This document shows positions 1,739 to 22,900 of a stretch of 28,390 bases of DNA, in pieces. This stretch comes from a virus. Lineage: Duplodnaviria; Heunggongvirae; Uroviricota; Caudoviricetes. The notes beneath the pieces are model-generated. The model had not been told where the DNA came from. It did not search any database and saw nothing but the letters and a program-made list of their open reading frames with translations. The position numbers were made by a program, and so were the translations under genes. Where the stretch lies: the IMG/VR virus record IMGVR_UViG_3300010396_000001, positions 132,320-160,709 of that record; one strand, 5' to 3'. Position 1 is the first letter of the stretch; each line of letters begins with the position of its first letter.

Positions 1739-2760
1739 CAACCGCCGCCTTCCGCCGGACCGCCCACGATCCGGGCGACGCGCAGATCACTAGTCACTGC
1801 CCGTTCTGCGGTAGCGGCCAGGTCGTCGGCCGCTCGGACGGCAACATCGAGTGCTCGTTCTGCGGCATGACCTACCTGGTCCGCATCCAGCCGATGTTCA
1901 CCGGCATGCCCGGCAACCCGGCCCCCGGCTTCGGCGGCGAGACCAGCATGGCTCCGGACCTCATGGATCCCGCGATGGTCGGCCCGGACGGCATGCCGAT
2001 GGGCGAGGAGATGGGCGAGCCGCCGCCAGGCGAGGATGCGCCCCCCTTCGGTGACGAGGAGGCCGGGGAGGGCCCGCCTGACGACGAGGCACCGGATGAT
2101 GCGGCGGGACCGCCCCCGGCCGCAGACGACGATAGCGGGGCGCCCCCGCCCAAGGGCAGCGATACGAAGAAGAAGCCCTCCAAGAGCAAGAAGGGCGCAC
2201 GCACCGCTGAGGGGCGCCGGAAGACCGCGCGGGTCGAGGACAGCCACGAGGATATGTCCGAAGCTGAGCTGCGCGCTCACATGCGGCAGCAGCACGGCTA
2301 CTGGGACTCGCCGGATGACCCGGACGCGGTGATCGACCAGACGCACAAGGACGAGCACGCCGACTACAAGCATGATCATGTGCATCCGGACCTGGAGCAC
2401 GAGCATGACCTGGATCTCCACCTGGGCGACCGGGACTGGATGCACCAGAACGGCATCGAGGCCTCGCGTCGTATTGCCGCGAGCAAGGTCCGCCGGTGCA
2501 AGTTCCCTTCCGCTGACGGTAAGACCTGCGGAGAGCTGATCATCCAGGACCAGAGCAAGGGCCCGTATCGGCATCAGGATCCCGCACTGGACGAGCAGCA
2601 TGAGGCTCAGGCATGGTGGTCTGCGCCCGGAGCACAGCACGAGGGGCGCCGGTACCGCACCATCGCCGGGGACGTGCTGCCCGAGGCGGCTTACATGCGG
2701 CACCTGGCCGTGCTGCACGGCGGGACCGAGATTCTCCGGAGCGCAGGCCAGCGCCCCTGA
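1735..2760 (+). CDS. Zn-ribbon protein with acidic/Pro linker and His-rich module, probably head-associated
   Basis: N-terminal CPFC-x14-CSFC ribbon (recalled in genes near the portal of related actinophages), acidic Pro-rich linker, Lys-rich patch, six-His module at 2278-2406, C-terminal C..C..H..H motif. Confidence 0.8.
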   Translation: MTTAAFRRTAHDPGDAQITSHCPFCGSGQVVGRSDGNIECSFCGMTYLVRIQPMFTGMPGNPAPGFGGETSMAPDLMDPAMVGPDGMPMGEEMGEPPPGEDAPPFGDEEAGEGPPDDEAPDDAAGPPPAADDDSGAPPPKGSDTKKKPSKSKKGARTAEGRRKTARVEDSHEDMSEAELRAHMRQQHGYWDSPDDPDAVIDQTHKDEHADYKHDHVHPDLEHEHDLDLHLGDRDWMHQNGIEASRRIAASKVRRCKFPSADGKTCGELIIQDQSKGPYRHQDPALDEQHEAQAWWSAPGAQHEGRRYRTIAGDVLPEAAYMRHLAVLHGGTEILRSAGQRP

Positions 2761-2849
2761 GGAGAAGCGTCCCACGGCCTTTCGGGCCGTACTATCCGCG
2801 GGTGCCAATTCCGCGAGGGACTCTTGCGACCTGTTCCTCAGGGGCGCTG
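2749..2849. ncRNA. Candidate structured RNA or bidirectional terminator (multibranch)
   Basis: Perfect 15-bp inverted repeat 2749-2763/2835-2849 enclosing helix GTCCC/GGGAC (2769-73/2817-21) and two hairpins (2774-2790, 2797-2815). Confidence 0.5.
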
Positions 2850-2862
2850 ACGTCTTGCGGGG

Positions 2863-3291
2863 TCAGACGGCCGGCAGGGGCTCTACCCAGACGTGACCGT
2901 CCATGTGCCGGGGCTCGGTGCCGTACTTGGCCAGGAGAGCAGCCTCGCCCGGGTCGGCAGCGTAGTCCCAGCCCTCCTCCATCCGGGCCTGCGCGTCGAT
3001 GTGGTCATGGCCGACGGTGCACTCGTAGCCGATCTCGCGGCCCGCGGCATTGAACAGCTGGCGCGACCAGGCGCCGCACTCTGTCGGCGGGTGGCCGCCG
3101 TCCTCGCACATCCCGCACTCGGGCTGGCGGCAGAACGGGCGCTCGACCAGCCAGCTGCACTTCCAGGGGGCGCAGCGCTTGCCGGAGTGGTGCTCGGCCG
3201 CGCACTGGCGGACCTCGGCCAGGCTGGCGTGGGTGAAGCGGCAGTGGCCGCAGGCAATCGCGATGATGGTCTCGATCAGCGTGGTCGTCAT
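2863..3291 (-). CDS. Cys/His-rich (Zn-binding) hypothetical protein
   Basis: CGHC-x3-H-x5-VRQC plus further Cys pairs; RBS GAGAGGGA (3297-3304 on the minus strand) and an upstream promoter. Confidence 0.8.
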   Translation of the reverse strand: MTTTLIETIIAIACGHCRFTHASLAEVRQCAAEHHSGKRCAPWKCSWLVERPFCRQPECGMCEDGGHPPTECGAWSRQLFNAAGREIGYECTVGHDHIDAQARMEEGWDYAADPGEAALLAKYGTEPRHMDGHVWVEPLPAV

Positions 3292-3321
3292 GTCGGTCCC
3301 TCTCGTTGTGCTTACGCCACG

Positions 3322-3351
3322 AGCCTAGCAAGGAACATTGTATTTAGTCAA
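3322..3351 (-). promoter_or_regulatory. Sigma70/HrdB-type promoter P1 with palindromic spacer box
   Basis: Minus strand TTGACT-N18-TAGGCT with TG extension; spacer contains CAATGTTCCTTG (3329-3340). Confidence 0.8.
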
Positions 3352-3389
3352 CAAGTCCGGAGCATGCACGGAAGCTCTGGAGGCAAAAC

Positions 3390-5681
3390 GTGAAGATCAG
3401 CTACTCACCCCGTGCGGCCAGCATCTCGGACCGGCGCGTGTTCGGCGACATGAGCCGGGTTATCGCGCACGGCGCGAGGGACCTGCGCGAGGAAGACCCG
3501 CAGGTCACCGAGATGCGCAAGAACCGGCGCGTCTCCAGCCGACTGGCCCGCACGGCGTCCCTGGGGAGCCGGACGGCCTCCGGCGGCGGCTCGGGCGCGG
3601 GATCGGGCTTCTCCGACATCCAGTTCGCCACCGGCCGGCCGCGGGACCCGCTGTTCTACTGGCGGCAGAACAACCTGCCTTACGACTTCAGCCAGAACGA
3701 GGAGCTGGCCAAGGTCCGCGCATTCTGCCGCCTGCTCTACCAGACCGATCCGATCATCGGCGCGTGCATCGACATCTTCTCCAAGTTCCCGGTCATGGGC
3801 TGGGAGCTGGAATGCAAGGACAGCAAGCTGGAGGACTTCTACGGCGAGCTGTTCTTCGACGATGGGGACAACTCCCTCGACTATGACGAGTTTCTCGTCG
3901 ATATCGGCCGCGAGTACTTTATCGCCGGAGAGGCATGGCCTTTCGCCACCTTCGACGAGGACCTCGGAATCTGGTCAGACGAGGAACTGCTCAACCCCGA
4001 TGACATCAAGGTCGAGCGGTCGCCGTTCCTGAAGGAGCCCAGGTATTTCATCAGGCTGCCGTGGACGATCCGGCAGATCCTCCAGACGCGGCAGCCCGCC
4101 TGGGAGTACAACAAGCTCATCAAGGAATACCCCGAGCTGGCCGCCTATACCTCCGAGAATTCCTTCATGCCGGTCAGCAATGTCCTGCTGAAGCAGCTGA
4201 AGTTCAAGGGCGATACCTTTAATATCCGCGGCCTGCCGCTGCTGACCAGGGCCATGCGCTCCATGCTGCAGCAGGAGATGCTGAACACCGCGATGGACGC
4301 CATCGCCGACCGGCTGTACACCCCGCTGATCCTGTGCAAGCTGGGCGCCAGCGCCTCCGACCTCGGCACCTCGGTCCCGTGGATCCCGACCGACGACGAC
4401 CTGGAGAACTTCGAGCTGGCCCTGGATGCCGCGCTGGCCGCGGACTTCAGGGCCCTGGTGTACAACTTCGGCGTCGAGATGGCCCCGGTGCTCGGCCGGG
4501 AGAACATGCCCGACCTGACCCCGGACTTCGAGCGGATCGAGGACCGGGTGCTGATGGTCTTCGGCCTGTCCCGCTCCCTGCTGGTCGGCGCCGGAACGGG
4601 CCAGACCTACGCCGCGGACGCGCTGAACCGCGACCTGGTCACCATGCTGATGACGCGCTACCAGCGATTCCTGACCCGGCACTTCCGCCAGCGCGCCATG
4701 ATCGTTGCCGAGGCCCAGGAGCACTACGACTTCGAGGAGCGCAACGGGCGCCGGTACGTGATCATGGAAGAGGTCCTGGAGACCGACGAGGAGACCGGCG
4801 AGAAGCACATCGTCGAGCAGCCCCGGCTGCTGGTTCCTGACCTGCGGTTCAAGACCCTCAACTTCCATGACGAGGACACCCGGCGCCAGTTCATTGAGGG
4901 CCTGCGCGCTACCGGCGTGCCGATCAGCCAGCGCACCCGCACCCGTGACCTCGGCATCGACCTGGACGAGGAGACCGAGCGGTCCAAGGACGAGGCAGTC
5001 TCCCAGATCGTCGATGAGCAGGAGGTCCGCAAGCGCGCCTACGTGGCGCTGAAGGATGCCGGCCTGCCGCTCGCCCCGGACCTGGTCGCCGACTTCGCTC
5101 CCCAGGCCCAGGTCGAGAACATGCCGCCGGGCATCGCCGCCGAGATGCTGATGCAGGAGCGCTTCGGCACCGACCCGACCGACATCCCCGACATCGCCCC
5201 CACCCCCGAGGACATGGCCGAGGAGGTGCCGCCCGACGCCGAGATGGGCTCCGAGGCCCCTCCGGACGAGGGGATGTACGAGGAAGGGGGCGAGGACCAG
5301 GACCAGCGGCCTGACGAGTCCGATGAGCAGCGGGCCGACATGCCGAAGAAGGGCGCCAGGATGAAGGACTACAGGGGGCGCGGGCTGCCGTCGCAGGCGG
5401 CGCTGTTCCGCCGCACCGCCCGCGTCCGGGATATCATCGCCACCCGCCGGATCGAGGAGGCGACCCTGCAGGCCGAGGCCGCACGCGAGGCACTGCTGGA
5501 TGGCCGCGAGGTGAGCTGGGAGATGCAGGTCCATGCCAAGGAGCATCCCGAGGCCAAGGACTGGGTATCCGGGCCCGAGGTGCCCTGCTACGCCACGCCG
5601 CCCCACGTCGGCGCCCGGCGCGAGCTGACTATCACTGATGACCTGGCGGACAGGGATCGCTATCCGGCGGTGAGGCGGTGA
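3390..5681 (+). CDS. Portal protein (763 aa) with acidic C-terminal extension
   Basis: GGAGG RBS at 3379-3383; helical core (YQTDPIIGACIDIFSKFP, GLPLLTRA, AIADRLYTPLILCKLG, FGLSRSLL) resembling large-actinophage portals; first large gene of the head cluster. Confidence 0.85.
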   Translation: MKISYSPRAASISDRRVFGDMSRVIAHGARDLREEDPQVTEMRKNRRVSSRLARTASLGSRTASGGGSGAGSGFSDIQFATGRPRDPLFYWRQNNLPYDFSQNEELAKVRAFCRLLYQTDPIIGACIDIFSKFPVMGWELECKDSKLEDFYGELFFDDGDNSLDYDEFLVDIGREYFIAGEAWPFATFDEDLGIWSDEELLNPDDIKVERSPFLKEPRYFIRLPWTIRQILQTRQPAWEYNKLIKEYPELAAYTSENSFMPVSNVLLKQLKFKGDTFNIRGLPLLTRAMRSMLQQEMLNTAMDAIADRLYTPLILCKLGASASDLGTSVPWIPTDDDLENFELALDAALAADFRALVYNFGVEMAPVLGRENMPDLTPDFERIEDRVLMVFGLSRSLLVGAGTGQTYAADALNRDLVTMLMTRYQRFLTRHFRQRAMIVAEAQEHYDFEERNGRRYVIMEEVLETDEETGEKHIVEQPRLLVPDLRFKTLNFHDEDTRRQFIEGLRATGVPISQRTRTRDLGIDLDEETERSKDEAVSQIVDEQEVRKRAYVALKDAGLPLAPDLVADFAPQAQVENMPPGIAAEMLMQERFGTDPTDIPDIAPTPEDMAEEVPPDAEMGSEAPPDEGMYEEGGEDQDQRPDESDEQRADMPKKGARMKDYRGRGLPSQAALFRRTARVRDIIATRRIEEATLQAEAAREALLDGREVSWEMQVHAKEHPEAKDWVSGPEVPCYATPPHVGARRELTITDDLADRDRYPAVRR

Positions 5682-5931
5682 CAGAGCCGAAACCCTGAAC
5701 CCAGGCGCGCACGATGGCGGCCAGCCGTCGCTCTATGCCGCCGACCGGTGCCTCAATATTGCCATTGTCCACCCGCTTGATGAACTGCAGGAGCCAGTAG
5801 CAGCCGCTGCCGTCGGCATACCGGCCGAAAGCGGCATGATGCAGGTCCAGCTTCTGCGGTTCTTTCATGGCATATACAAGAGCCTCCTGCAGGACCTCTT
5901 CCTCGGTCCGGGGCTTCTTAGAGCCAGTCAT
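5632..5931 (-). CDS. Hypothetical protein (99 aa), last gene of the minus-strand operon
   Basis: ATG at 5931 in an ATGA overlap with the upstream stop; 3' end overlaps the portal 3' end by 50 nt. Confidence 0.65.
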   Translation of the reverse strand: MTGSKKPRTEEEVLQEALVYAMKEPQKLDLHHAAFGRYADGSGCYWLLQFIKRVDNGNIEAPVGGIERRLAAIVRAWVQGFGSVTASPPDSDPCPPGHQ

Positions 5932-6326
5932 ACCCTGATCCGGCCTTTCCGCGAGAACAGGCTGCGCCACCAGGGACGCTCCTCTGCTCGCTTTCTCTCG
6001 TTATTGACTGTCCGGTAGAGGAACAGGGAGCGCCGGATGATCTCGGCCGCCGTGCAGTCCTGCTCGGACGCCTCGCCCAGGAGCCAGTCGCGCTCTGTCT
6101 GCCCGAGCCCCACCGAGATCCGGTGCGTCGAGGGAGGACGCGAGTGCATGATCCGGCGCACGGCTCCCTGCAGCTGGTCCGAGAGGATGATCACCCCGAA
6201 GTCTCTCAGGGTGATCATGACACCCCCGGGCTCGCTGCGCTGGACCCCCTCGACCGGGTACAGCACGCCGTTGTGCAGGTAGTCATCGCCCTTGCGGACC
6301 TTGCCGATGCCGAGGATCTTATCCAC
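5928..6326 (-). CDS. Protein with C-terminal ribbon-helix-helix domain
   Basis: GTG at 6326 with GGAG RBS; HRISVGLGQTERDWLLGEASEQDCTAAEIIRRSL matches the RHH pattern. Confidence 0.7.
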   Translation of the reverse strand: MDKILGIGKVRKGDDYLHNGVLYPVEGVQRSEPGGVMITLRDFGVIILSDQLQGAVRRIMHSRPPSTHRISVGLGQTERDWLLGEASEQDCTAAEIIRRSLFLYRTVNNERKRAEERPWWRSLFSRKGRIRV

Positions 6327-6654
6327 CGGAGGGCTCCGGCCCCAGTGGCGGCCAGGGCAGCGGGAACGCATTCGTGAGCGCGCGGGCGCGCTCGGTGTAC
6401 AGCTCCCGCTGCCACCAGGACGGGAGGCCCTCGGCCGCTGCGGCCTCCAGGTAGGCCCTCCAGGCGCATGGCTCGATTACCAGGGCGAATTCCAGGGCCA
6501 CCCCGGCCTCGGCCTGCTGCTGCGGGGTTCCCGCAACGGCGGCGACGATGCTGGCCGCCCTGGCCCAGATGGTCGCGACGGAAACGTTCCTCGCGACCTC
6601 CAGGGTCAGCTGAGACGGCGTCTTCGGCAGGGTCTGCCGGGCGTGCCTGCCCAT
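6319..6654 (-). CDS. Hypothetical protein (111 aa)
   Basis: ATG abuts the upstream stop; GGAGGAG RBS inside the end of the upstream gene. Confidence 0.7.
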   Translation of the reverse strand: MGRHARQTLPKTPSQLTLEVARNVSVATIWARAASIVAAVAGTPQQQAEAGVALEFALVIEPCAWRAYLEAAAAEGLPSWWQRELYTERARALTNAFPLPWPPLGPEPSGG

Positions 6655-6900
6655 CTACTCCTCCTGCGGGACCCTGGCCAGCAGGCGCTCCAGGGCGCTG
6701 CGGGCTGTCTTCCGGTCGGGATACCGGCCGCTGTCGGCGGGAATGCTCATCCCGCCGTGGGTGATCAGGAACAGGCCCCCGCCGGGACCGGGCCAGAAGT
6801 ACGGCGCGGGCAGCTGCTCGACCGTCCAGCGGACTCCGTAGCCGGCCTGCTCTTCCTCGGTCACGCGCTGGCCGGCGAGGACCATGTCCCTGGGATTCAC
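6655..6900 (-). CDS. Hypothetical protein (81 aa)
   Basis: GTG at 6900 in a GTGA overlap with the upstream stop; coupled operon member. Confidence 0.7.
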   Translation of the reverse strand: MNPRDMVLAGQRVTEEEQAGYGVRWTVEQLPAPYFWPGPGGGLFLITHGGMSIPADSGRYPDRKTARSALERLLARVPQEE

Positions 6901-7430
6901 CGGATGTAATCCGGGGCGGTCAGCGGCAGGTCGTTCTCGGTCAGCCACGTCCGGGCCCGGTCGGCGCCGATGCCGCCATCAGCCAGCATCCGGTAGGCCT
7001 CGCGCTCGGGGGTGGTGAAGCCGCCCTGGACCTCGACGGCATGCATGGCCGCAGTGACCGGCGAGTGGTAGTGCCCGTCGGCGTCCATGTACCTGTCGCC
7101 GTCTGCAGCTGGCACGAGGCTGGGCAGGGGCTGCGAGGCCAGGCGCTCCATCTTGCGCCGCTTCAGGACATTCTGGTACTGGATGCGCTCGATGTCGTTC
7201 ATGCCCATGATCCTCTGGTACCAGCGCAGCACCTCGTTGATCCCCGCCAGGAAGGCCACGGCCTCGCCCTTGCCGGTGATCGTGCGGATGGTGTCGCCGA
7301 TGCCGAGCACCCACTTCTCGCCGAGAGGGATGCTGGGCAGCACGTACTTGATGATCCCGGCGTCCTGGTGCTCCAGGAGCTTGTCGTAGACCTCCTGATC
7401 GGTCAGGACGTCCCCAGGCTCGTCAGCCAT
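6897..7430 (-). CDS. Hypothetical protein (177 aa)
   Basis: Protein-like ORF with GC3 bias; 8-nt overlap with the upstream gene. Confidence 0.8.
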   Translation of the reverse strand: MADEPGDVLTDQEVYDKLLEHQDAGIIKYVLPSIPLGEKWVLGIGDTIRTITGKGEAVAFLAGINEVLRWYQRIMGMNDIERIQYQNVLKRRKMERLASQPLPSLVPAADGDRYMDADGHYHSPVTAAMHAVEVQGGFTTPEREAYRMLADGGIGADRARTWLTENDLPLTAPDYIR

Positions 7431-7644
7431 TGCTCGTGATCCTTTCCGGGTGCGTTTCCTCGGCGAAGAAGTGCGGCATGCCCATCATGCGGCACCGGTA
7501 ATGCGGCAGCGCCCCGCAGAGAGGGCAGCCTTTCCTGAGGTCACCAAGCGGGCGGAAGCGGTCGCCGAGGCGCTCGCCGTCCCTGACGGCGACATCCATC
7601 CGCTGGGCGGACCTGCGGGCGCCGGCAGCGCCGCGACTCGTCAT
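7423..7644 (-). CDS. Small phage-type zinc-finger protein (73 aa)
   Basis: ATG at 7644 with GGAGGA RBS (7651-7656); CPLCGALPHYRC...HPER (CxxC-x7-C-xn-H-x2-R). Confidence 0.7.
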   Translation of the reverse strand: MTSRGAAGARRSAQRMDVAVRDGERLGDRFRPLGDLRKGCPLCGALPHYRCRMMGMPHFFAEETHPERITSNG

Positions 7645-7676
7645 GATCTTTCCTCCGGGCCGTCGATGTTGCCGCG

Positions 7677-7705
7677 AACCTATCAAGGTTCCTTGCAGTC
7701 GTCAA
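7677..7705 (-). promoter_or_regulatory. Sigma70/HrdB-type promoter P2 with palindromic spacer box
   Basis: Minus strand TTGACG-N17-TAGGTT with TG extension; spacer contains the 5-2-5 palindrome CAAGG-AA-CCTTG (7684-7695). Confidence 0.82.
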
Positions 7706-7742
7706 GCGATTCGGCAGCCGCCCGGAAGCCTCGGGAGGATTC

Positions 7743-14299
<6,557 letters not shown>

Positions 14300-14303
<4 letters not shown>

Positions 14304-14731
14304 GCCAGCTCGCCTACCGTGCAGAGACGCTGACGCCCGAGGAAATAGCTGCTCAGGATCCATTTTGCGGAAATGGCGTGCGCCTGGAGCATGATTCTCA
14401 GGATCTTGCCGCAGTCGCTGAGCTGGTGCTCGGGATGCTCGGCACGCCATGCGTCGTTTTCCCCGGCTGCGCCTGGGCAGACTTGTCCGATCAGGAATTC
14501 GATGCCAGTGAGGCCCGGAAGCAGTGGCACGAGATCCTGGAAGGACAACATGACGGGATTGTCCCAGCTCCTGCTGACTTACGGGCCGCTGGGCGCACTG
14601 GTTCTCATGCTGCTGGTGCCAGTGCCCGGCGCAGGAGTGCCCGTCCTGGTTACCTACTGGTACGTTGTCAAGCAGCAGAAGGAGCTAGACCTGAAGCAGC
14701 AGGCGCTAGACCTGGAGCGCGAGGCGGCTAA
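14300..14731 (+). CDS. Possible hypothetical protein
   Basis: ATGA overlap with the giant gene. The first ~85 aa look protein-like, but the 3' 182 nt overlap the next gene out of frame. Confidence 0.4.
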
Positions 14732-14846
14732 GCGAGCAGTCGGGGAGCTGGAGATGGCGAACCGGCTGGTCGGCGAGCTGCGCACGATCGCTGCTGCCCG
14801 CACCGGAGGGATTCCGGATGTCACGGCATCACGGAAAGATCCGTAA
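14550..14846 (+). CDS. Small membrane protein with coiled-coil tail (holin-cassette member)
   Basis: GAAGGA RBS, ATG at 14550; hydrophobic N-terminus LLLTYGPLGALVLMLLV...VLVTYWYVV followed by a charged heptad region. Confidence 0.72.
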   Translation: MTGLSQLLLTYGPLGALVLMLLVPVPGAGVPVLVTYWYVVKQQKELDLKQQALDLEREAAKRAVGELEMANRLVGELRTIAAARTGGIPDVTASRKDP

Positions 14847-15060
14847 CATGCTTGCGACCATTACCGGCCATCATCCCGCAGCAGGCGGCCTGGATGAGCG
14901 GATCGAGACAGCACACCAGGAAGTCGCCGAGGCTGCTGACCGGCTGGAGGCGGCCAAGAGGGAAGCCCGTCAGGCGCGCACCTATATCAATGAGAACCGG
15001 TTCGCTGCGCTGATCGCGGATTCACTGGGCATACAGCATCCCCGGCACAATTCTCACTGA
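14818..15060 (+). CDS. Small helical protein of the type found beside actinophage holins
   Basis: Coiled-coil then INENRFAALIADSLG (the NxF motif is recalled for such proteins); lies between two membrane genes. Confidence 0.65.
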   Translation: MSRHHGKIRNMLATITGHHPAAGGLDERIETAHQEVAEAADRLEAAKREARQARTYINENRFAALIADSLGIQHPRHNSH

Positions 15061-15110
15061 CTGTCTCTACCGCCCGGTACGATCTTCCCGGGAAGTATCA
15101 GGGAGGGGTC

Positions 15111-15605
15111 GTGATGATGGAGAACTCTGCAAAGCCGCGCGGACGTGCTCGCGCAATTTGGCGCGTGGCCTGGGCTCCGGGAATGAACCGGTCCTGGGTC
15201 ATTATCGGTGTTCTTATCGTCGCCTGGATCGTGTGCGGGTTTTTCCTTGACCGCACGCAGTTCGGGCCGGACCTGTATAATGTTTCCATTGTAGCGCTTC
15301 CGGCAGCAGCCCTGCTGTTCAGCCTGGAATACACGGTGATGGGATTCCGGGGATCAGCCAAGTGGTGGACGAATGACCTCGGCACCACGATCGTGATGAA
15401 GGACGTTGCCATCATCACCTCGAATATCGTCCTGGCCTGGGCCCAGCTGTTTAACCATGGCCTGATTGATACCCCGCTGCCTGCATGGATTTACGTCGGC
15501 GGCGTTACCGGGGCGGTGCTCATCCTGGTCTGGCGCATCCTGGTCTGGCTGCGCGTTTACCGCCAGGAGCGGATATCGGGCCGTCAGCCGGACGGCGGCG
15601 CCTGA
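15111..15605 (+). CDS. Multi-pass membrane protein, putative holin
   Basis: GGAGG RBS; about four hydrophobic segments, KWWTNDLGTTIVM loop and basic C-terminus WRILVWLRVYRQER. Confidence 0.62.
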   Translation: MMMENSAKPRGRARAIWRVAWAPGMNRSWVIIGVLIVAWIVCGFFLDRTQFGPDLYNVSIVALPAAALLFSLEYTVMGFRGSAKWWTNDLGTTIVMKDVAIITSNIVLAWAQLFNHGLIDTPLPAWIYVGGVTGAVLILVWRILVWLRVYRQERISGRQPDGGA

Positions 15606-15805
15606 TAAAGCTGCCGGCGCGCATCAAGCCACGCCTGGTAAGCCGTGTCGGCCACGGCCCTTGCCCGGAACGCCGCCCCGTAGGCCCGTCCCGCGGCCGG
15701 GGCGAAGCCGCCGGCCTGCATGATCTGCGCCCAGGTGACGAAAAGCTGCCGGGCTTGCGCCTCCGCTGCGGTGTAAGCGCTCCACAGGGCGTCGATCTCG
15801 GCCAT
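15584..15805 (-). CDS. Small helical protein, LW..AY...APP module copy A
   Basis: GAGAGAG RBS; clear paralogy with the adjacent gene and with the C-terminus of 16924-18465. Confidence 0.85.
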   Translation of the reverse strand: MAEIDALWSAYTAAEAQARQLFVTWAQIMQAGGFAPAAGRAYGAAFRARAVADTAYQAWLDARRQLYQAPPSG

Positions 15806-15816
15806 CGCGTGCTCTC

Positions 15817-16053
15817 TCAGCTCGGCGGCGCATTGTAGATCTGCTGGTAAAACGTCATCCAGGCGTCATAGGCGTCTCCGGCTGCGATCTGCGCCTGGTA
15901 AGCCGCCGAGAAGGCCGAGGCGCTGCGCCAGGAATGGCCGCCGAGCGTCGTCATGTGCTCTTCCCACTTGCGGCTCAGCTGGCTCGCGGTGGCCTGAGCC
16001 TGCTGGTAGGCAGCCCACAGGGTGCCGAGATCAGCGTCTGTCAGCTGGGCCAT
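15817..16053 (-). CDS. Small helical protein, LW..AY...APP module copy B
   Basis: ATG at 16053 with GGGAG RBS; paralogous to copy A. Confidence 0.85.
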   Translation of the reverse strand: MAQLTDADLGTLWAAYQQAQATASQLSRKWEEHMTTLGGHSWRSASAFSAAYQAQIAAGDAYDAWMTFYQQIYNAPPS

Positions 16054-16121
16054 GAGTTTCTCCCGGGAGCGCATGGCTTCCCTGGAAGAGGCGAGACCAC
16101 CACGTCCTGGGGAGGGCCCCG

Positions 16122-16445
16122 ATGACAGAGCAGCCGGCAGGCGGCCGGGATGTCCTGGCTGAGCTGGACTCGCTGGGCGAGTACCTCCTCGCCCTGATCG
16201 GCGACAATCCGCAGCCGGGCCAGGACGCCAACAAGACCGACCTCGTATCCCGGCTGTTCCACCTCAAGACGGTGGCGCAGAACATCAGCGAGCTGCACGC
16301 GGTTTATGCCTCCGGCGTCACGCACGACCAGCTGGTACGCCGCAGCCGGGGCATGAGCGAGGCCGACACCGCTGCGCAGGAGCGCATCGCCGAACTGGAA
16401 CGCCAGCTTGCCGAGGCCCGAGGGAGTGCCAGTGCCCAGGTATAA
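16122..16445 (+). CDS. Hypothetical helical/coiled-coil protein
   Basis: GGGGAGG RBS; 107-aa ORF overlapping the next start. Confidence 0.75.
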   Translation: MTEQPAGGRDVLAELDSLGEYLLALIGDNPQPGQDANKTDLVSRLFHLKTVAQNISELHAVYASGVTHDQLVRRSRGMSEADTAAQERIAELERQLAEARGSASAQV

Positions 16446-16923
16446 CGCCCAGTGGCAGACGGCTGCCGCCCTGGCGAGTAACAGCGTGCTGGCCTGGATG
16501 GGCTTCACCGTGGTCCCCGCCCGGCTACGCCGGTGCACGATCGGCGTCGCGAACTCCGGCGGCACGATCACCAGCATGCAGTGCCAGGTGGGCCTGAACC
16601 TTGCCACCACCGGCAGTCCGGCCACTCCGGTGAACGTCACCTCGAACAACATGGCGCCGTTCGGCGGCACGCCAGTAGCCTCGACGAACAAGCTGATCAG
16701 CGCCTGGACCACGGCGCCGACGCTGGGTGCGCAGACCACCGACGCCTACACGATCACCTTCAATGACCAGCTGATGGGCGACCTGCCCTGGGAGCTGCTG
16801 GAGGAGTTCTGGTTCTCGGGAGCGGGCCTGGCCGCCAATGGCGGCATCGCCTTCGTGAACCGCAGCGGCGCCGCACTGCCCGGCTCGCACTACTTCACCA
16901 TCGCGGTGGAATGGGAAGAGTAA
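16432..16923 (+). CDS. Beta-rich protein, possibly virion structural
   Basis: GTG at 16432 after GGGAG; Thr/Ala/Gly/Asn-rich alternating beta pattern, ends in YFTIAVEWEE. Confidence 0.75.
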   Translation: MPRYNAQWQTAAALASNSVLAWMGFTVVPARLRRCTIGVANSGGTITSMQCQVGLNLATTGSPATPVNVTSNNMAPFGGTPVASTNKLISAWTTAPTLGAQTTDAYTITFNDQLMGDLPWELLEEFWFSGAGLAANGGIAFVNRSGAALPGSHYFTIAVEWEE

Positions 16924-18465
16924 TCAGTTCGTCGGAGGCGCCGGGTACAGCGCCTTTCTGGCGTCATCCCAGGCCTTCCAGGCTGCGTCCTTAGCCTGAT
17001 CCGCGGTATACAGCTGCGCGTAGATCGAGCCGGCCGTCCCGTCGGTCCGGGCGGCCGAGGCGATCATGCGCCAGTTGCGCTCCAGCTGCGCATGGCGCTC
17101 AGCTGCCGCCAGGTAAGCGATCCACAGAGTCGCCAGGTTGGTCTGGGCTGGCGCTGCAGTCGCGGTCAGCACCGAGGGAGCCGACAGGGCGGCCTGCGCC
17201 AGGGCAGCGCACACGGCGCTCGCCGTCAGCACCGACGAGGCGCTCAGGGCAGCCGAGCCGAAGACCGTGGCCGGGCCCGCCGGAGGCGGCGGGGGAAGCT
17301 GCGCCGGCCGGGTCTTCCTGAAGGCCAGCGACGGGCGCCGCTTCGGCGCCAGCAGGGTGATCCGGGCGAGGAGTCCCCGGTAAAGCCGCGAGCGTGACGA
17401 TATGACCTGCGGGCGCCCGGCGCGCCGCATGCCGGGCGGGAGTGCTGCCGGTGGCGGGACGCGCCGCAGGACCCGGCGCTCCCCCTTCGCAGCCAGCCGG
17501 GATGCCCGGCGCCCGGTCACGCCATGGGAAACCGCTGCCGGCAGGATGACGGCCGCGGGCACCGCCTGCTGCGTCCGGCTGCGGACCGGGGAGGACGCGG
17601 GCCGGCGCCGGGACACTGGGGCGCGCAGGATGACGGCCGCGGGCACGGCAAGCACCGGCGGGCGCCCGGGCTCTCGCGTGCGCCGCAGGTCCGCGGTGCG
17701 CAGCGGCAGCCGCCGCGCCTGGGGCAGCACGGGGACCACCAGGGAGCCCTGCAGCTGCGGCCTGCGGATCCTGGAGACAGCCGATGCCGTGCGAGGCCGC
17801 TGCGCCTGCGGGACGAGCGTCACCGTGGCGTTTCCCGGCGCGATGGCCATGCACAGGCCTATCCACTCGCCGGCGCTTCCCTGTGTTCCCGAGAAGGTGA
17901 ACGTGCCCGTGGACGAGCTGATCTGGTAGCCCAGGACGCTGTTGTTGGCGGCGCTGAGTCCCTGGCTGGTCCAGGGAGCGCCCGGGAGCGTGGGCAGGCC
18001 GTTGAACTGGACCAGCAGCCCGAGGATGAACTCGGCCAGCTGAGTGGTGAGGGAAGTGGGCCCGGAGGAGACCGCGGTGCTGTTGCCGGTGGCGATGCCC
18101 GCGGTGCCGTCCAGGAAGGGCGAGCTGCCCAGGCCCGATACCTCGGCATACATCAGGCCGACGACCGCAGCCAGGGACCCGTTGGGCACGGAGATCGACA
18201 CGGCGCTCTGGCCGCCCGCGATGGACGGCTTCATCCAGGCTGCGCCGTAGACCTCGTTGCTGCTGTAGCCCGACAGCTCGGCAGCCGGGTTCGTCCAGCC
18301 GGTGGTCACGCCGCCCAGGGACGGACCGGAGGAGCTGATCGCGACATTGGAGGTAGAGAAGCTGGTGGGCAGCAGGAACAGCGTGTTGCCTGCGCCGGTT
18401 GCCTGCGAGAGGCTGCCGGAGAAGGCATTGGGGATCGACCCCGACTGCACTACGGCGATCGCCAC
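16924..18465 (-). CDS. Chimeric protein: Ser/Gly/Thr-rich beta domain, Arg/Pro-rich linker, LSAxSVLTA repeats, LW..AY...APP module copy C
   Basis: AGGAGG RBS (18471-18476); the N-terminal ~210 aa resemble virion fibre/decoration beta domains; the C-terminal ~73 aa are paralogous to copies A and B. Confidence 0.85.
   Translation of the reverse strand: MAIAVVQSGSIPNAFSGSLSQATGAGNTLFLLPTSFSTSNVAISSSGPSLGGVTTGWTNPAAELSGYSSNEVYGAAWMKPSIAGGQSAVSISVPNGSLAAVVGLMYAEVSGLGSSPFLDGTAGIATGNSTAVSSGPTSLTTQLAEFILGLLVQFNGLPTLPGAPWTSQGLSAANNSVLGYQISSSTGTFTFSGTQGSAGEWIGLCMAIAPGNATVTLVPQAQRPRTASAVSRIRRPQLQGSLVVPVLPQARRLPLRTADLRRTREPGRPPVLAVPAAVILRAPVSRRRPASSPVRSRTQQAVPAAVILPAAVSHGVTGRRASRLAAKGERRVLRRVPPPAALPPGMRRAGRPQVISSRSRLYRGLLARITLLAPKRRPSLAFRKTRPAQLPPPPPAGPATVFGSAALSASSVLTASAVCAALAQAALSAPSVLTATAAPAQTNLATLWIAYLAAAERHAQLERNWRMIASAARTDGTAGSIYAQLYTADQAKDAAWKAWDDARKALYPAPPTN
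17541..17646. repeat. 22-bp direct repeat GCAGGATGACGGCCGCGGGCAC, 84-bp period
   Basis: Copies at 17541-17562 and 17625-17646; encodes VPAAVIL twice. Confidence 0.9.
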
Positions 18466-18515
18466 GTGACCCTCCTCTGCTTCTGATTACCGAAGGCAGC
18501 ATGCAGGGTTTCCGG

Positions 18516-18545
18516 TTGACGTTATGCAAGAAACCTTGATAGTGT
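18516..18545 (+). promoter_or_regulatory. Sigma70/HrdB-type promoter P3 with palindromic spacer box; predicted leaderless transcript
   Basis: TTGACG-N18-TAGTGT with TG extension; spacer contains CAAGAAACCTTG (18527-18538); ATG 18552 lies 7 nt after the -10. Confidence 0.82.
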
Positions 18546-18551
18546 TTTGGC

Positions 18552-19133
18552 ATGAGCAGCGGACAGGCAGGGGCGGTCATGAATCAGCGGATGGCTAGCG
18601 ATGACCTGATGACCGAGATCAGCCAGCTGGCTGCCGAGCGGCAGCACGTGCTGACTGCCGACATGACCGGATCGAGGCGCCTGACCCTGGCCAGCGCGCT
18701 GAGCGTGCGGTCCCACCTGCAGGGGCGCCCGGCCCGCCACCCTGCCCAGGAACCTGCCCCGGCTCCGGTGCGCAGTGCCCCGGCCGACGGTTCTCTTCCT
18801 CCCGTCACGGCCTTCCGGCACGTGCCGCCTGGCCGGTACGCCGTCGAGAGCCGGACCGGGAACAACGACCTGGACTTCTTCGAGGTGCGCCGGCCCGAGG
18901 AGGGCAAGTGGGCGGGCTACACCTTCGTCGAGCGGATCATCGGCGGCCATGACAACGCGCCGGTCCGCGGCATTGCCGCCCGGCGGGCACTGCAGGCCAT
19001 CGTGCGCGCGGGGTTCGATGAGTCCAGGCTGCGGGCCGCTCAGGAGCTGGGGCTGTGCAAGGAGTGCGGGCGCCACCTGACCGATGAGGAGTCGCGACTG
19101 GCGGGCATGGGGCCCTACTGCAGGAACAAGTAA
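18552..19133 (+). CDS. DUF6011-type zinc-finger protein
   Basis: C-terminal CKECGRHLTDEESRLAGMGPYC, preceded by GRYAV...LDFFEV...GKWAGYTFV, typical of this actinophage family. Confidence 0.8.
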   Translation: MSSGQAGAVMNQRMASDDLMTEISQLAAERQHVLTADMTGSRRLTLASALSVRSHLQGRPARHPAQEPAPAPVRSAPADGSLPPVTAFRHVPPGRYAVESRTGNNDLDFFEVRRPEEGKWAGYTFVERIIGGHDNAPVRGIAARRALQAIVRAGFDESRLRAAQELGLCKECGRHLTDEESRLAGMGPYCRNK

Positions 19134-19141
19134 CGACCACC

Positions 19142-19167
19142 GCGGGGCAGCCGGAGCGCTGCCCCGC
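19142..19167 (+). terminator. GC-rich hairpin, probable intrinsic terminator
   Basis: GCGGGGCAGC-N6-GCTGCCCCGC, a perfect 10-bp stem 8 nt after the stop codon; no U-tract. Confidence 0.65.
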
Positions 19168-19187
19168 TGTCATGCGGGAAGGCAACC

Positions 19188-19934
19188 ATGAACTACAACG
19201 AGCCCTGGCTGTATGCCGTGATCGCCGGGCTGTTCCTGGTCCTGGTGCTCCTGGAGCGCCTCGGCCCGGTCAGCATCCGGCAGGAGATCACCAGCCGCCT
19301 GCAGCACCTGCATCATTCTCAGGAACGCCTGGTCGTTATCCACGAAACGGATGCTGAGCCTGCCCCGGAGCCCCCGGCGGTCCGGATCCTGCCGGGGCCC
19401 GGTTACGTGCTGCCTCCTGCCGCCCCGGCGGTCCCCGGTCACGAGCCCCTGCTGATGCCATCGCAGCCGACCGGCAAGCCCACCCTGCTGTCGGACGAGG
19501 CCCGCACGGAGCAGCTGGCGTCTCTTCGCGCCGACTGCGAGTACTGCGGCGAGGACCACGTCGGCGACTGCGAGAAGAGCCTCCTGGCCCGGGCGCTGCG
19601 CAAGCGCGGTGTCCAGCCCGGCTCGATCGCCTTCGAGAAGGCGCTCGGCCGCCCGGCGCCTCCTGGCGCCGAGGATACGATTCCGGACATGAAGCAGCCT
19701 CCTGAGCCCCGGCCCCCTGTCCGGGTGCGCCCCGGCGAGCAGGTCCGGATCGAGCTGCCGCCGCCGCCCGCCATCCCGGAGATCGATCTCCTGGGTGATT
19801 ACGACCCGGACTCAGTGGCCGCCCGGATCAGGGCCGCTTACGAGCGTGCCGAGGCTGACCAGCAGCTGCGGATCGACGAGGCGGCGCAGCTGAGCCGCCA
19901 GGTCTGGGCAGCGGAGCACCCGCCAGCAGGCTGA
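19188..19934 (+). CDS. N-terminally membrane-anchored Pro-rich protein with CxxC-x3-H-x3-C motif
   Basis: WLYAVIAGLFLVLVLL transmembrane segment; CEYCGEDHVGDC; GGAAGG RBS. Confidence 0.78.
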   Translation: MNYNEPWLYAVIAGLFLVLVLLERLGPVSIRQEITSRLQHLHHSQERLVVIHETDAEPAPEPPAVRILPGPGYVLPPAAPAVPGHEPLLMPSQPTGKPTLLSDEARTEQLASLRADCEYCGEDHVGDCEKSLLARALRKRGVQPGSIAFEKALGRPAPPGAEDTIPDMKQPPEPRPPVRVRPGEQVRIELPPPPAIPEIDLLGDYDPDSVAARIRAAYERAEADQQLRIDEAAQLSRQVWAAEHPPAG

Positions 19935-19973
19935 TCCTCTCGCGGCATGCAGGGAAGCCTAGAGGAGGCCCGG

Positions 19974-22900
19974 ATGCTGCGGAAGTACGCCAGTCTTGCT
20001 GTCCTGGATGCCTGGCAGGTCCCGGCGCGGCCGGGGCCTGCCTCGCTGCGCAAGACCGCTCACCGGGTGGACTTCGAGTACACCCCGCGGCCGGGCTACC
20101 TGTACGTGCGCTCGCGGGCGATCTCCAGCCGGGCCAACGACAACCACGACGAGTTCCCGGCCGCCGAGATCGAGAAGTCCTACAAGACCTTCCTCGGCAA
20201 GCCGGTCTTCGTCAACCACCACAACGCCAACCACCGCCGGGCCCGCGGCGTGATCGTCGCGGTCGCCCTGCACCGTGACCGCAACCCGGACGGCACTCCC
20301 GACACCTGGGCCGAGGTCCTGCAGGAGATCGACGCGCGCCGCTTCCCCAAGCTGGCCCAGGCCATTCTGGCCGGCCGGGTGGACCGCACCTCCATGGGCG
20401 TGGACGTCGAGGAGTCGCAGTGCACTGCCTGCGGCAACAAGGCCACCGACCCGGCTCAGTACTGCCGTCACCTGCCCGCCCTGAAGGGCCAGAAGATCCG
20501 CAGGCGCGGCAGCGACGGCAAGCTCCGCGAGGAGATCATCCGCGAGATCTGCCGGGGCCTGTCCTTCTTCGAGAACAGCCTGCTGGTCGAGGAGCCCGCT
20601 GACCCGACGGCCTACGTGCTCGGCACCCCTGATGACCGCGGCCTGAAGATGACCGCGGCGGCCCTGCCGAAGAGCCTGCGGTTCCGGTTCATGCACGCCA
20701 GCGAGACCATGTCCGGGTCCCACGAGCTGACTGCGCACGTGCCCGGCCGGGACAAGCCGGTCGGCGAGATCAAGTGGCACCCCGCCAGCGGCGCCGTGGA
20801 CCTTGTCGGCACCCATCCCTCTTATCAGGGCCGCGGGCTGGCCACCCACCTGTGGAACCGGGCTCACGAGATCTCGGCCGAGCGCGGCTTCCCGTTTCCC
20901 CGGCACACCGGCAGCGAGCCCGGAGACGCACCGGGCGTCCAGACCCCGGAGGGCGCCCAGTGGGCCCGGCACGCTCCTAACCCCGGCTACGTGCACGGCC
21001 AGGAGCCGATGATCCCCCGCCAGCGGGGCAACCAGACCCGCGACATCCGGCCCGAGCTGATCGACCCGGCCGCGACCGACATGGCCGAGCACATGATCAG
21101 CGACCACGGGTTCTACGACTCGGCCAGCCGGATCCGGGCCTCAGATCCTGAGGCCGTCGCAGCCATGCATGACGCCCAGCATGCCGGGCCCGTCCGGCGC
21201 CCGCACCGTCACGCGGCACTGCCGCCGCACGTCAACTGGGACGCCGTCACCGGCCTGCAGCATGTCGTTCCCGTGACATTCAGCGGCGACTCGTCAGAGC
21301 CCTATGAGTTCCCGATGGGCAGCCCGCATACTCACGACGTCTGCCGCGATCACCTTCCCTCAGTAATGTCGCTGCCGGAAGGCGAGGCGCGGATTCACCC
21401 GGAGAACCCGCGCCGGGGAACCTGCGTTTACTGCGGGCGCGGCCCCGAGGGCATCATCGGCAATCCCCAGAACCTGGACGTGCCGAGCCGCGAGGGCGGC
21501 GGCACTTATCCTTATTCTCAGCGTCACCTGCCGGAGATGCTGCGCCAGCTAGGAGAAGGTCAGCACGACTTGAGCCCCTACGACCCGCACAACCCGAAGT
21601 TTGATTACCATTCGGGAATCGACCAGCGGCTGCCCTACCGCATGAACTCGCTGCGCCGCGAGGCGATCACGGGCGAGGAGGCGGAGCCTGGCCACAGCAT
21701 CTGGGCCGTCCCGAACGGCGAGAGCCCGGCCGCCGACGAGGTCTACCAGAACATGCACACCCGCGATCCGGGCGAGCACGGCGAGGGCTGGTACAAGGGC
21801 ACGGCCTATCACGGGCCGTACCACATCATCCGGCACCCCGAGACCCGGTCCACCCACGTGGTGGACGCCCGCGGCCGGGACACCCGGCCCGGCAGCCCCG
21901 GCGGCTACGGCAACTGGGAGCGCGACGGCAACTGGGGCGAGAGCGCCGCCGAGGACCACTGGCGCGGCCTGGAGTCAGTCGGCCCCGACCACGCCCGGAC
22001 CGGCACTCACGAGGATCCCTCGTACGCCCTGCAGAAGGAGCGCACCCCAGCCTTCCCGCACTCGCGCATCGATCCCGAGGACCTGCGCCGGGCCGAGCGC
22101 CCGGACGCCCGCGTGCACAAGCCGGAAGGGCACAGTCCGGAGGATGAGTGGCACGGGCCCTATGAGGTCGTGAGGCACCCGGAGACCAGCAGGTTCCACG
22201 TGGTGGACAACGCCGGGCGCGTTGCCCCCCATGGGTGGCAGGGACACCCGACGCAGATGGGAGCAGAGCGCTCTCGCGATTACACTGACCGCCGCCAGCA
22301 GTCCAAGGACCGGGCCAAGGGCATCGCCGGCGCCATGTGGGAGGGCATGCAGCAGGTCTTCGACCCCGGCTCGACCCCCGACAGCCGGCAGTCCGACAGG
22401 AACCTGGCCGAGGGTCAGGAGCTGATGACCCGCTATGCGGGCGGGCGCGGGCGCGTGAAATTCGACCCGGATGAAGATGGCGGCGCGCCCTACTATCACC
22501 GCGAGCACTACCTGCCGAACGGGAATGAGTCCGGCTGGTACGTAAAGCATTACGGCGGCGCTCACGCGGACATTTATCATCACGCCACGGGTGATGAATC
22601 GGGTCATGACATGATCCGATTCCCCGAGCATCCTGATGACGAGAACTCAATGGCGCCGCGGATTCACCCGGACTTCGACGACATCAGCATGGGCAAGGCG
22701 CTGAAGGACTGGCACGACGACACCGAGGCCGGGGCACGCCGGCACTGGGAGGACGCGAGCCCCGGCTATGGCGGTCATCCGGTCGGGGACGCCCGGATCA
22801 TCCGCTGGAAGCGGCGCTACCCCAACGGGCGCCCTCCCCGCCCGCAGCAGCACGAGGGCGCCCGCTACGAGAGCCCGGCCGACCACCCGTTCTTTCAGGC

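Follow-up and report, generated by a model that had tools for sequence, protein, structure and literature searches.

A histidine module with six copies in three head-region proteins of an uncultured soil phage: an undescribed small domain with a candidate metal site

What is the nature of a cysteine-free, histidine-rich pattern that recurs six times in three genes of one phage head region? The question is raised by the window considered here, a stretch of 28,390 nucleotides that comprises bases 132,320-160,709 of a complete 160,709-bp IMG/VR record with direct terminal repeats (IMGVR_UViG_3300010396_000001). Three of its proteins, P0001, P0002, and P0003, carry one, four, and one copies of the pattern, respectively. 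All six represent one domain of about 55 residues that folds independently and had not been described before; its consensus is a hydrophobic residue followed by x-x-H-[LM]-x3-H-G-[WFY], a spacer of 15-19 residues, H-[DE]-x-[L]-H, a further 6-14 residues, and a tail H-x-H. On balance, this module would be a small structural metal site of four to six histidines (His4-His6), which stabilises a minimal fold between larger domains.

The copies had been proposed in a sequence-only reading of the window, and they are real: the intervals that were given translate, in frame and within three long genes of the + strand, to the peptides that were quoted, with the sole correction that the interval 9318-9447 (130 nucleotides) is one base in excess. 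Over the whole domain, copy 1 extends from 2236 to 2412 (+; P0001 residues 168-226) and belongs to a subclass with a 15-residue spacer. In P0002, copy 2 is located at 9276-9473 (+; residues 512-577), with the same short spacer and an insert ahead of the tail histidines, copy 3 at 10257-10436 (+; residues 839-898), with an orthologue at residues 593-650 of P0006, copy 4 at 10698-10874 (+; residues 986-1044), which represents the best-conserved type, W-x-x-H-L-x3-H-G-W, and copy 5 at 12552-12734 (+; residues 1604-1664), downstream of the SWIM region. Copy 6 is found at 21048-21224 (+; P0003 residues 368-426) as a lineage-specific insertion. A partial seventh copy, HLAVLHG, which is limited to the first-helix motif, is located at the C-terminus of P0001 (2701-2721, +). 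Between HG and H-x3-H, the spacer measures 15 residues in copies 1 and 2 and 19 residues in copies 3-6, and not a single cysteine occurs across the six copies, both as originally described. Of the two HxxxH half-sites that had been read into the pattern, the second stands as H-x3-H; the first pair is actually H-x4-H.

Could such a pattern arise by chance in proteins that consist of histidine to 5.6-6.5%, as do the three carriers? In 20,000 composition-preserving shuffles of the carriers, the core H[LM]xxxHG, which is observed seven times, was found 0.12 times on average; for the core plus H-x3-H, six observed occurrences compare with 0.002 in the shuffles, and for the full pattern, six with 0.0003. 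When leave-one-out profiles were built and each copy was compared with 2000 shuffles, copies 2, 4, 5, and 6 scored 21.8, 39.8, 31, and 17.8 bits, respectively, with a shuffle maximum of 13. Copy 3 scored 1.7 bits, and copy 1 is marginal, its 9.7 bits not exceeding the maximum of 10.2 among its own shuffles; well-conserved orthologues of copy 1 in eight related phage loci (alignment A5) lend it support. A profile made solely from the sequences of other phages gave 52 bits for copy 4, 38.7 for copy 5, 21.2 for copy 6, and 14.8 for copy 3, and these four were its sole significant matches in a six-frame translation of the whole 160.7-kilobase (kb) genome. By one or the other type of profile, leave-one-out or external, copies 2-6 are recognised by profiles from which they were excluded. 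No additional copies were found in the whole 160.7-kb genome, two other giant proteins included. At the DNA level, the longest words shared between copies are of 13 nucleotides, which rules out an origin as DNA repeats; the copies are therefore old protein-level duplicates.

The features that define the family are seen in an alignment of 42 diverse module sequences (A4; mean column identity, 26%). Histidines H15, H20, H41, and H45 are invariant in 42/42 sequences, the glycine at position 21 is present in 40/42 (95%), and in the tail, H52 and H54 occupy 38/38 and 36/38 of the filled positions, respectively, with H-x-H being present in about 88% of the copies. Hydrophobic residues recur at positions 12, 16, 22, 37, and 44, and the residue following the glycine is aromatic (W, F, or Y) in 28/42. 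Cysteine accounts for 0.1% of the residues. Other than histidine, no polar residue is conserved, and a Glu or Asp column that might provide ligands is absent. An AlphaFold2 model of copy 4 (59 residues, 18 sequences) reached a predicted local distance difference test (pLDDT) value of 86.7 and a predicted template modelling score of 0.68, with helices at 2-20, 24-32, and 37-46, no strand, and a low-confidence tail that holds H-x-H. The fold is thus confidently predicted as a three-helix bundle, in which H-x4-H ends helix 1, the conserved glycine acts as a cap, and H-x3-H lies in helix 3. For the copy-1 region, modelled with its own nine orthologues, helices were obtained at both histidine pairs at a pLDDT of 57, a confidence too low for a shared fold to be judged.

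The same alignment bears on the idea that the module is a minimal or degenerate enzyme, such as a relic of a HExxxH-type metallopeptidase helix, or else a DNA- or RNA-binding element. The H-x4-H spacing does equal that of the HExxxH variant of polyvalent-protein metallopeptidases (PMC5512222), and the carriers each combine several enzymes. At the position that follows the first histidine, however, Leu, Met, Val, or Ile is found in all 42 sequences (24, 15, 2, and 1, respectively) and never Glu, the model of just 55 residues is all-alpha and devoid of a beta-sheet, and no Pfam peptidase is matched even at an expectation value (E) of 10. With the Glu and the sheet missing, a zincin relic (HExxH/HExxxH) is excluded. 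Binding of nucleic acids, which had been suggested before, is disfavoured by the acidic character of the module, with a median net charge of -4 and an isoelectric point of 6.0. As a whole, this explanation is very improbable.

Does the domain belong to a named family? The earlier statement that none could be assigned holds after broad searching, with no match in Pfam, in PDB sequences, or in four fold libraries. Scanning of the six copies against Pfam with hmmscan at E≤10 yielded chance matches only (E 0.17 and 0.52), so that no Pfam-A family applies, the LPD domains of polyvalent proteins, CHAD, hemerythrin/HHE, Integrase_Zn, and zf-C2H2 included; a Pfam scan of the entire carriers and six homologues gave nothing in the module region, and the PHROGs scan of the carriers provided no family for the module. 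Profile searches of PDB sequences with alignments A1 and A4 returned 0 hits at E≤10. Generic three-helix similarity was all that was obtained with Foldseek (PDB, BFVD, AFDB clusters), with the ESM Atlas searched by shape, and with VIA-align over 48,161 chains; the best fold match had a Z of 4.9, and values of Z<5 are typical of any three-helix bundle or helical model. ShosA (8zva_A; Z 4.5, 27% identity over 52 residues) was considered as a fold relative and taken as probably a chance match. The ESM Atlas searched by features gave no usable match. The word-indexed protein search returned only the query itself for P0003 residues 230-480, nothing for P0002 residues 820-1060, and for A4 one 81-residue protein that was already part of that alignment. 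Relatives were likewise not found in an IMG/VR scan with copy 4, in tblastn searches of 50,697 GenBank phages with copy 4 and P0001, or upon comparison of the copy-1 alignment with 185,579 prokaryotic species genomes.

The hidden Markov model of the six copies that had been proposed as a check was run at E≤1e-3 against 1.84 billion cluster representatives, and it recovered carrier homologues, a few small proteins, and false positives. Since this library contains representatives only, the count of 12 hits, that is, P0001 of the window itself, eight hits taken as true, and three false positives, is a lower bound; P0002 and P0003 were not returned. Among the true hits are four homologues of P0002 (1474-2273 residues, with one to four copies each), a 320-residue fragment of the P0002 type with two copies, and the 58-residue P0012, which is apparently a stand-alone module; its contig is short and phage-like, and a RusA gene lies next to it. 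P0014, a 93-residue protein, has two half-copies similar to the C-terminal half-module of P0001. In the 339-residue P0009 (L004:6001-7020, +), from an unrelated phage-like contig of small unannotated open reading frames (ORFs), two short modules lacking the tail H-x-H are accompanied by a signal peptide, a stretch rich in Cys, and a thioredoxin-like CxxC region; use of the module thus extends to a probably exported protein.

The three remaining hits, P0005, P0011, and P0013, were rejected as low-complexity, repeat, or ankyrin false positives. Such hits lend some colour to the view that the module is a mere chance product of partly disordered sequence rich in His, Asp, and Glu, as does the composition of the carriers and of the phage's giant proteins, which are all His-rich (6.0-8.0%, versus a genome median of 2.9%). 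With the modules excluded, P0002 and P0003 still contain 5.5-5.9% His, and two giant proteins encoded directly upstream of the window (C1:106106-111772 and 111954-118178) are His-rich and have no module. A compositional artefact is refuted by the shuffle counts (six observed full patterns versus 0.0003), by the external profile, which picks the copies of the window specifically, and by the conservation recorded in A4; orthologous positions are conserved across dozens of phages, and the fold is predicted with confidence. Its probability is so small as to be negligible.

Which function would explain a domain of this kind? The best explanation for four to six invariant histidines with constant spacings on helices, in an acidic 55-residue domain where no further polar residue is conserved, is a role as metal ligands, and metal binding is plausible from both the conservation pattern and the model. 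Histidine pairs that are three to five residues apart on a helix are standard zinc-chelating pairs, as known from C2H2 fingers and zincins. In an up-down-up bundle, helix 1 and helix 3 would run parallel, and the helix limits of the AlphaFold2 model would bring H15 to the height of H41 and H20 to that of H45, so that the four invariant histidines could close on one transition-metal ion (Zn2+, or else Ni, Co, Mn, or Fe). The tail H-x-H would either complete a six-histidine shell or offer spare ligands, and the metal would act as a rivet in a very small fold that is insensitive to redox conditions and lies between the carriers' enzyme domains.

Several points weigh against such a structural metal site. 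Convergence of the histidine side chains is deduced from the helix register alone; the two side chains of the first pair, H-x4-H, are approximately 140 degrees apart on an ideal helix, for which reason the helix end must bend; the tail H-x-H is absent in about 10% of the copies; and the subclass with the 15-residue spacer (copies 1 and 2), when folded alone, reached a pLDDT of 57 only. As the giant proteins are all rich in histidine (6-8% versus 2.9%), some of the histidine conservation could be a general property, and the avoidance of cysteine is no rule in these proteins, given that the same carriers hold Cys-based zinc ribbons. A predicted complex of the copy-4 module of P0002, the P0003 module, and two Zn ions had a score of 0.00, the controls of which were not run, and it is counted neither for nor against metal binding.

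The histidines might also act without any metal, as a switch or an interaction surface, in that protonation or His-aromatic contacts would alter folding or binding, for example upon compaction in the capsid or upon release and unfolding at ejection. Such a role would suit the clustering of six histidines in a small acidic domain, the aromatic residue after the glycine (28/42), the flexible tail, and the probable nature of the carriers as packaged and ejected proteins. It is, however, distinctly unlikely, because four invariant histidines at i/i+5 and i/i+4, maintained in 42 copies at 26% identity, represent a ligand signature rather than a loose patch of titratable residues; the analysis identified no precedent for such a switch. 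Going beyond the structural metal site, the module could be imagined as a single-chain, high-affinity His6 site that serves as a portable, oxidation-proof clasp, releasable through metal or pH, by which cargo is kept compact or tethered in the capsid and is freed at ejection; this elaboration is improbable and is offered as speculation.

Is the module, then, a fixture of head proteins? The phage is, by sequence comparison, a distant relative of the cluster C mycobacteriophages. Its genome has a guanine-plus-cytosine (GC) content of about 70%, and its portal protein (3390-5681, +; PHROG 2833, E 7e-142) is approximately 38% identical to those of cluster C mycobacteriophages and of Gordonia and Rhodococcus myoviruses. 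Portals that are 61-79% identical to that of the window were found in 46 IMG/VR loci, several of them in complete records of 160-166 kb, and the phage is therefore a member of a sizeable uncultured clade. The module recurs across these 46 related loci, in the giant protein as well as in the small one encoded ahead of the portal, and scanning of the loci added approximately 25 distinct copies; a few further copies are on unrelated phage contigs. The clade of uncultured soil phages to which the module family belongs is characterised by 160-kb genomes of high GC content.

Within this clade, the module is evolutionarily mobile, as the sequence-only reading had supposed: it has been gained and lost between orthologues and is also present in other giant proteins of the relatives. 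The position of copy 5 is occupied in P0010 and P0015, variant in P0008, and empty in P0006. The module is absent from 16/16 orthologous protease fusions (1145-1529 residues), and region 230-480 of P0003 has no relative but itself, so that the protease-fusion copy is specific to this phage; its insertion there shows domain shuffling at work. In complete relatives, copies are found in further giant ORFs of 1765, 1919, and 2517 residues, of which the latter two are located 50-115 kb from the portal. From the patchy presence among orthologues and the distant giant ORFs it follows that the module is a shuffled accessory domain and not a fixture of head proteins.

These data also bear on the proposal that the module serves as a packaging, assembly, or docking tag, which would bind inside the procapsid, to the portal, to the protease, or to another copy of itself, with or without a bridging metal, and would thereby co-recruit the three carriers. 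The proposal draws on the confinement of the six copies to three head-region genes within a genome of 160.7 kb, on the prohead protease itself being one of the carriers, and on the existence of stand-alone and multi-copy forms, which are compatible with an interaction module. It is set back by the lack of the module in all 16 protease fusions and in many orthologues of the small upstream protein, by the empty copy-5 position of P0006, by the presence of four copies in one protein, and by the copies of relatives in the 1919- and 2517-residue ORFs far from the portal. Being dispensable among orthologues, the module would not be an essential or obligatory packaging signal, and a tag function is rather unlikely.

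The carriers are plausibly head proteins, as had been assumed: P0003 has a protease domain, the SWIM region of P0002 resembles Myrna gene 96, and P0001 is encoded just upstream of the portal. They are probably packaged in the virion and ejected. A MuF domain was not detected in any of them. P0001 (1735-2760, +; 341 residues) is composed of an N-terminal zinc ribbon with a weak Lar-type match, an acidic, Pro-rich linker, copy 1, and the C-terminal half-module; its gene is located immediately upstream of the portal gene. In most related loci, its orthologues are likewise upstream of the portal, and the N-terminal zinc ribbon is always kept, the module only sometimes. The C-terminal motif R-Y-R-T-[IL]-[AS]-G-D-[VL]-L-x-E-x-A-Y-x-R-H-L-A-x-L-H (2680-2760, +) resembles helix 1 of the module alone; the ORFs L035:8724-10001 and L050:6207-10001 both keep it, and L007 can likewise be aligned over the C-terminal stretch.

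In L050:6207-10001 (+), the P0001 orthologue is part of an open frame of 1265 residues, in which several hundred residues are inserted between a ribbon-like Cys motif, S-H-C, and a complete zinc-ribbon motif, C-P-F-C-G-S-G-Q. By its sequence, the insert looks like an intein, and an intein at this place would point to an essential role for the small protein encoded ahead of the portal.

P0002 (7743-14303, +) is a giant multidomain protein of 2186 residues with copies 2-5, encoded 2 kb after the portal, and it has homologues in P0006, P0008, P0010, and P0015. Its SWIM-containing region matches genes of cluster C phages, including Myrna gene 96, which by number is two genes before the capsid genes 98 and 99 (PMC7150772). 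SWIM-like and ParB-like motifs are seen by eye, and neither reaches a Pfam match. The actinobacteriophage capsid paper holds no virion data for the cluster C homologue of P0002. A domain of about 150 residues is duplicated in the protein (residues 257-397 and 614-763; 8511-8933 and 9582-10031, +; 31% identity, E 3e-17); it starts with L-H-R-G-I-x-V-x-L-P and is without a Pfam match. Each of its copies is followed, after 90-130 residues, by a histidine module, which suggests that a two-domain unit was duplicated. Between the portal gene and that of P0002, four small ORFs are found on the minus strand (5632-7430), and the two genes are therefore not part of one operon.

P0003 (19947-24275, +; 1442 residues) combines a prohead protease, a GNAT-like domain, copy 6, DUF7178, and zinc ribbons. 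Its start is a head-maturation-protease domain (PHROG E 1.5e-19; PF23802, E 1.6e-30). An internal repeat, H-G-P-Y-x-[IV]-[IV]-R-H-P-E-T-x3-H-V-V-D-x2-G-R, is located at 21807-21878 and 22149-22220 (+), with 63% identity over 24 residues (E 4e-9). When P0002 and P0003 were searched for a recurrent four-residue junction motif of the type present in the neighbouring giant proteins, nothing shared was detected.

Regarding its significance, the signature of the family is unusually clean, comprising four invariant and two near-invariant histidines in a Cys-free context, and the module sits in large, almost wholly unannotated proteins of an abundant soil-phage clade. If it binds metal, it would be one of the rare natural sites built from His alone, here in a minimal fold of about 55 residues, of interest to metalloprotein chemists and protein designers, and it would provide a landmark for the dissection of giant phage proteins that are currently without database annotation. 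As the family seems to be narrow, the immediate impact is moderate.

How does the module compare with known systems? The helix of the C2H2 zinc finger (L-x2-H-x3-5-H) likewise has a His pair at its end with a conserved hydrophobic residue before it; the finger, in contrast, uses a Cys pair and a beta-hairpin, whereas the second pair of the module is a His pair on a separate helix. A C2H2 model matched one module copy at chance level (E 0.52), and the family is ruled out with Cys at 0.1% in 42 copies and no predicted strand. Hemerythrin-like (HHE) domains are four-helix bundles of about 130 residues with the motifs H, HxxxE, HxxxH, and HxxxxD; they are ruled out by the three short helices within about 55 residues, the absence of a Glu or Asp ligand column, and the lack of a Pfam match. 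The zinc-binding N-terminal HHCC domain of retroviral integrases and the zinc-stabilised three-helix bundle of Vpx of simian and type 2 human immunodeficiency viruses, with H-x3-7-H plus C-x2-C (or His/Cys) as ligands, are helical bundles of about 50 residues, in which a pair of histidines on one helix and a second pair of ligands toward the C-terminus hold one metal. The module resembles them as a small three-helix bundle that would be too small for stability alone and differs in that their second ligand pair is Cys-based; having no Cys pair, it is not a member of either group. The Vpx chains 4cc9_B and 4z8l_E aligned with the module model at Z 4.2 and 3.9, which is in the generic three-helix range, and the integrase domain turned up in no search with the module.

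A parallel in ligand chemistry is the His6 site of human calprotectin (S100A8/S100A9), which is formed by a helical H-x3-H (His91/His95), a tail H-x-H (His103/His105), and two further histidines (PMC5361872; PDB 4XJK as cited there), and whose coordination is called unique in the calprotectin literature. The putative ligand set of the module, with its H-x4-H, H-x3-H, and tail H-x-H, is likewise all-His and Cys-free. Calprotectin, however, is a eukaryotic EF-hand S100 heterodimer with the site at the subunit interface, whereas the module is a single-chain three-helix unit; there is no match in sequence or fold, and the likeness would be one of mechanism only. With regard to genetic setting, the nearest counterparts are the accessory domains of polyvalent proteins, small modules that are shuffled among giant proteins near head genes and that presumably enter the capsid and are delivered along with the DNA (PMC5512222). 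The survey of these proteins by Iyer et al. 2017 (PMC5512222) describes no His-rich helical module, and in distinction from them, neither the module nor its carriers match an LPD family of Pfam, and no MuF was detected in the carriers. What is shared is the occurrence as small shuffled units in giant multidomain proteins near head genes, and the module is a new domain family within this known kind of system, the shuffled modules of giant head-associated phage proteins.

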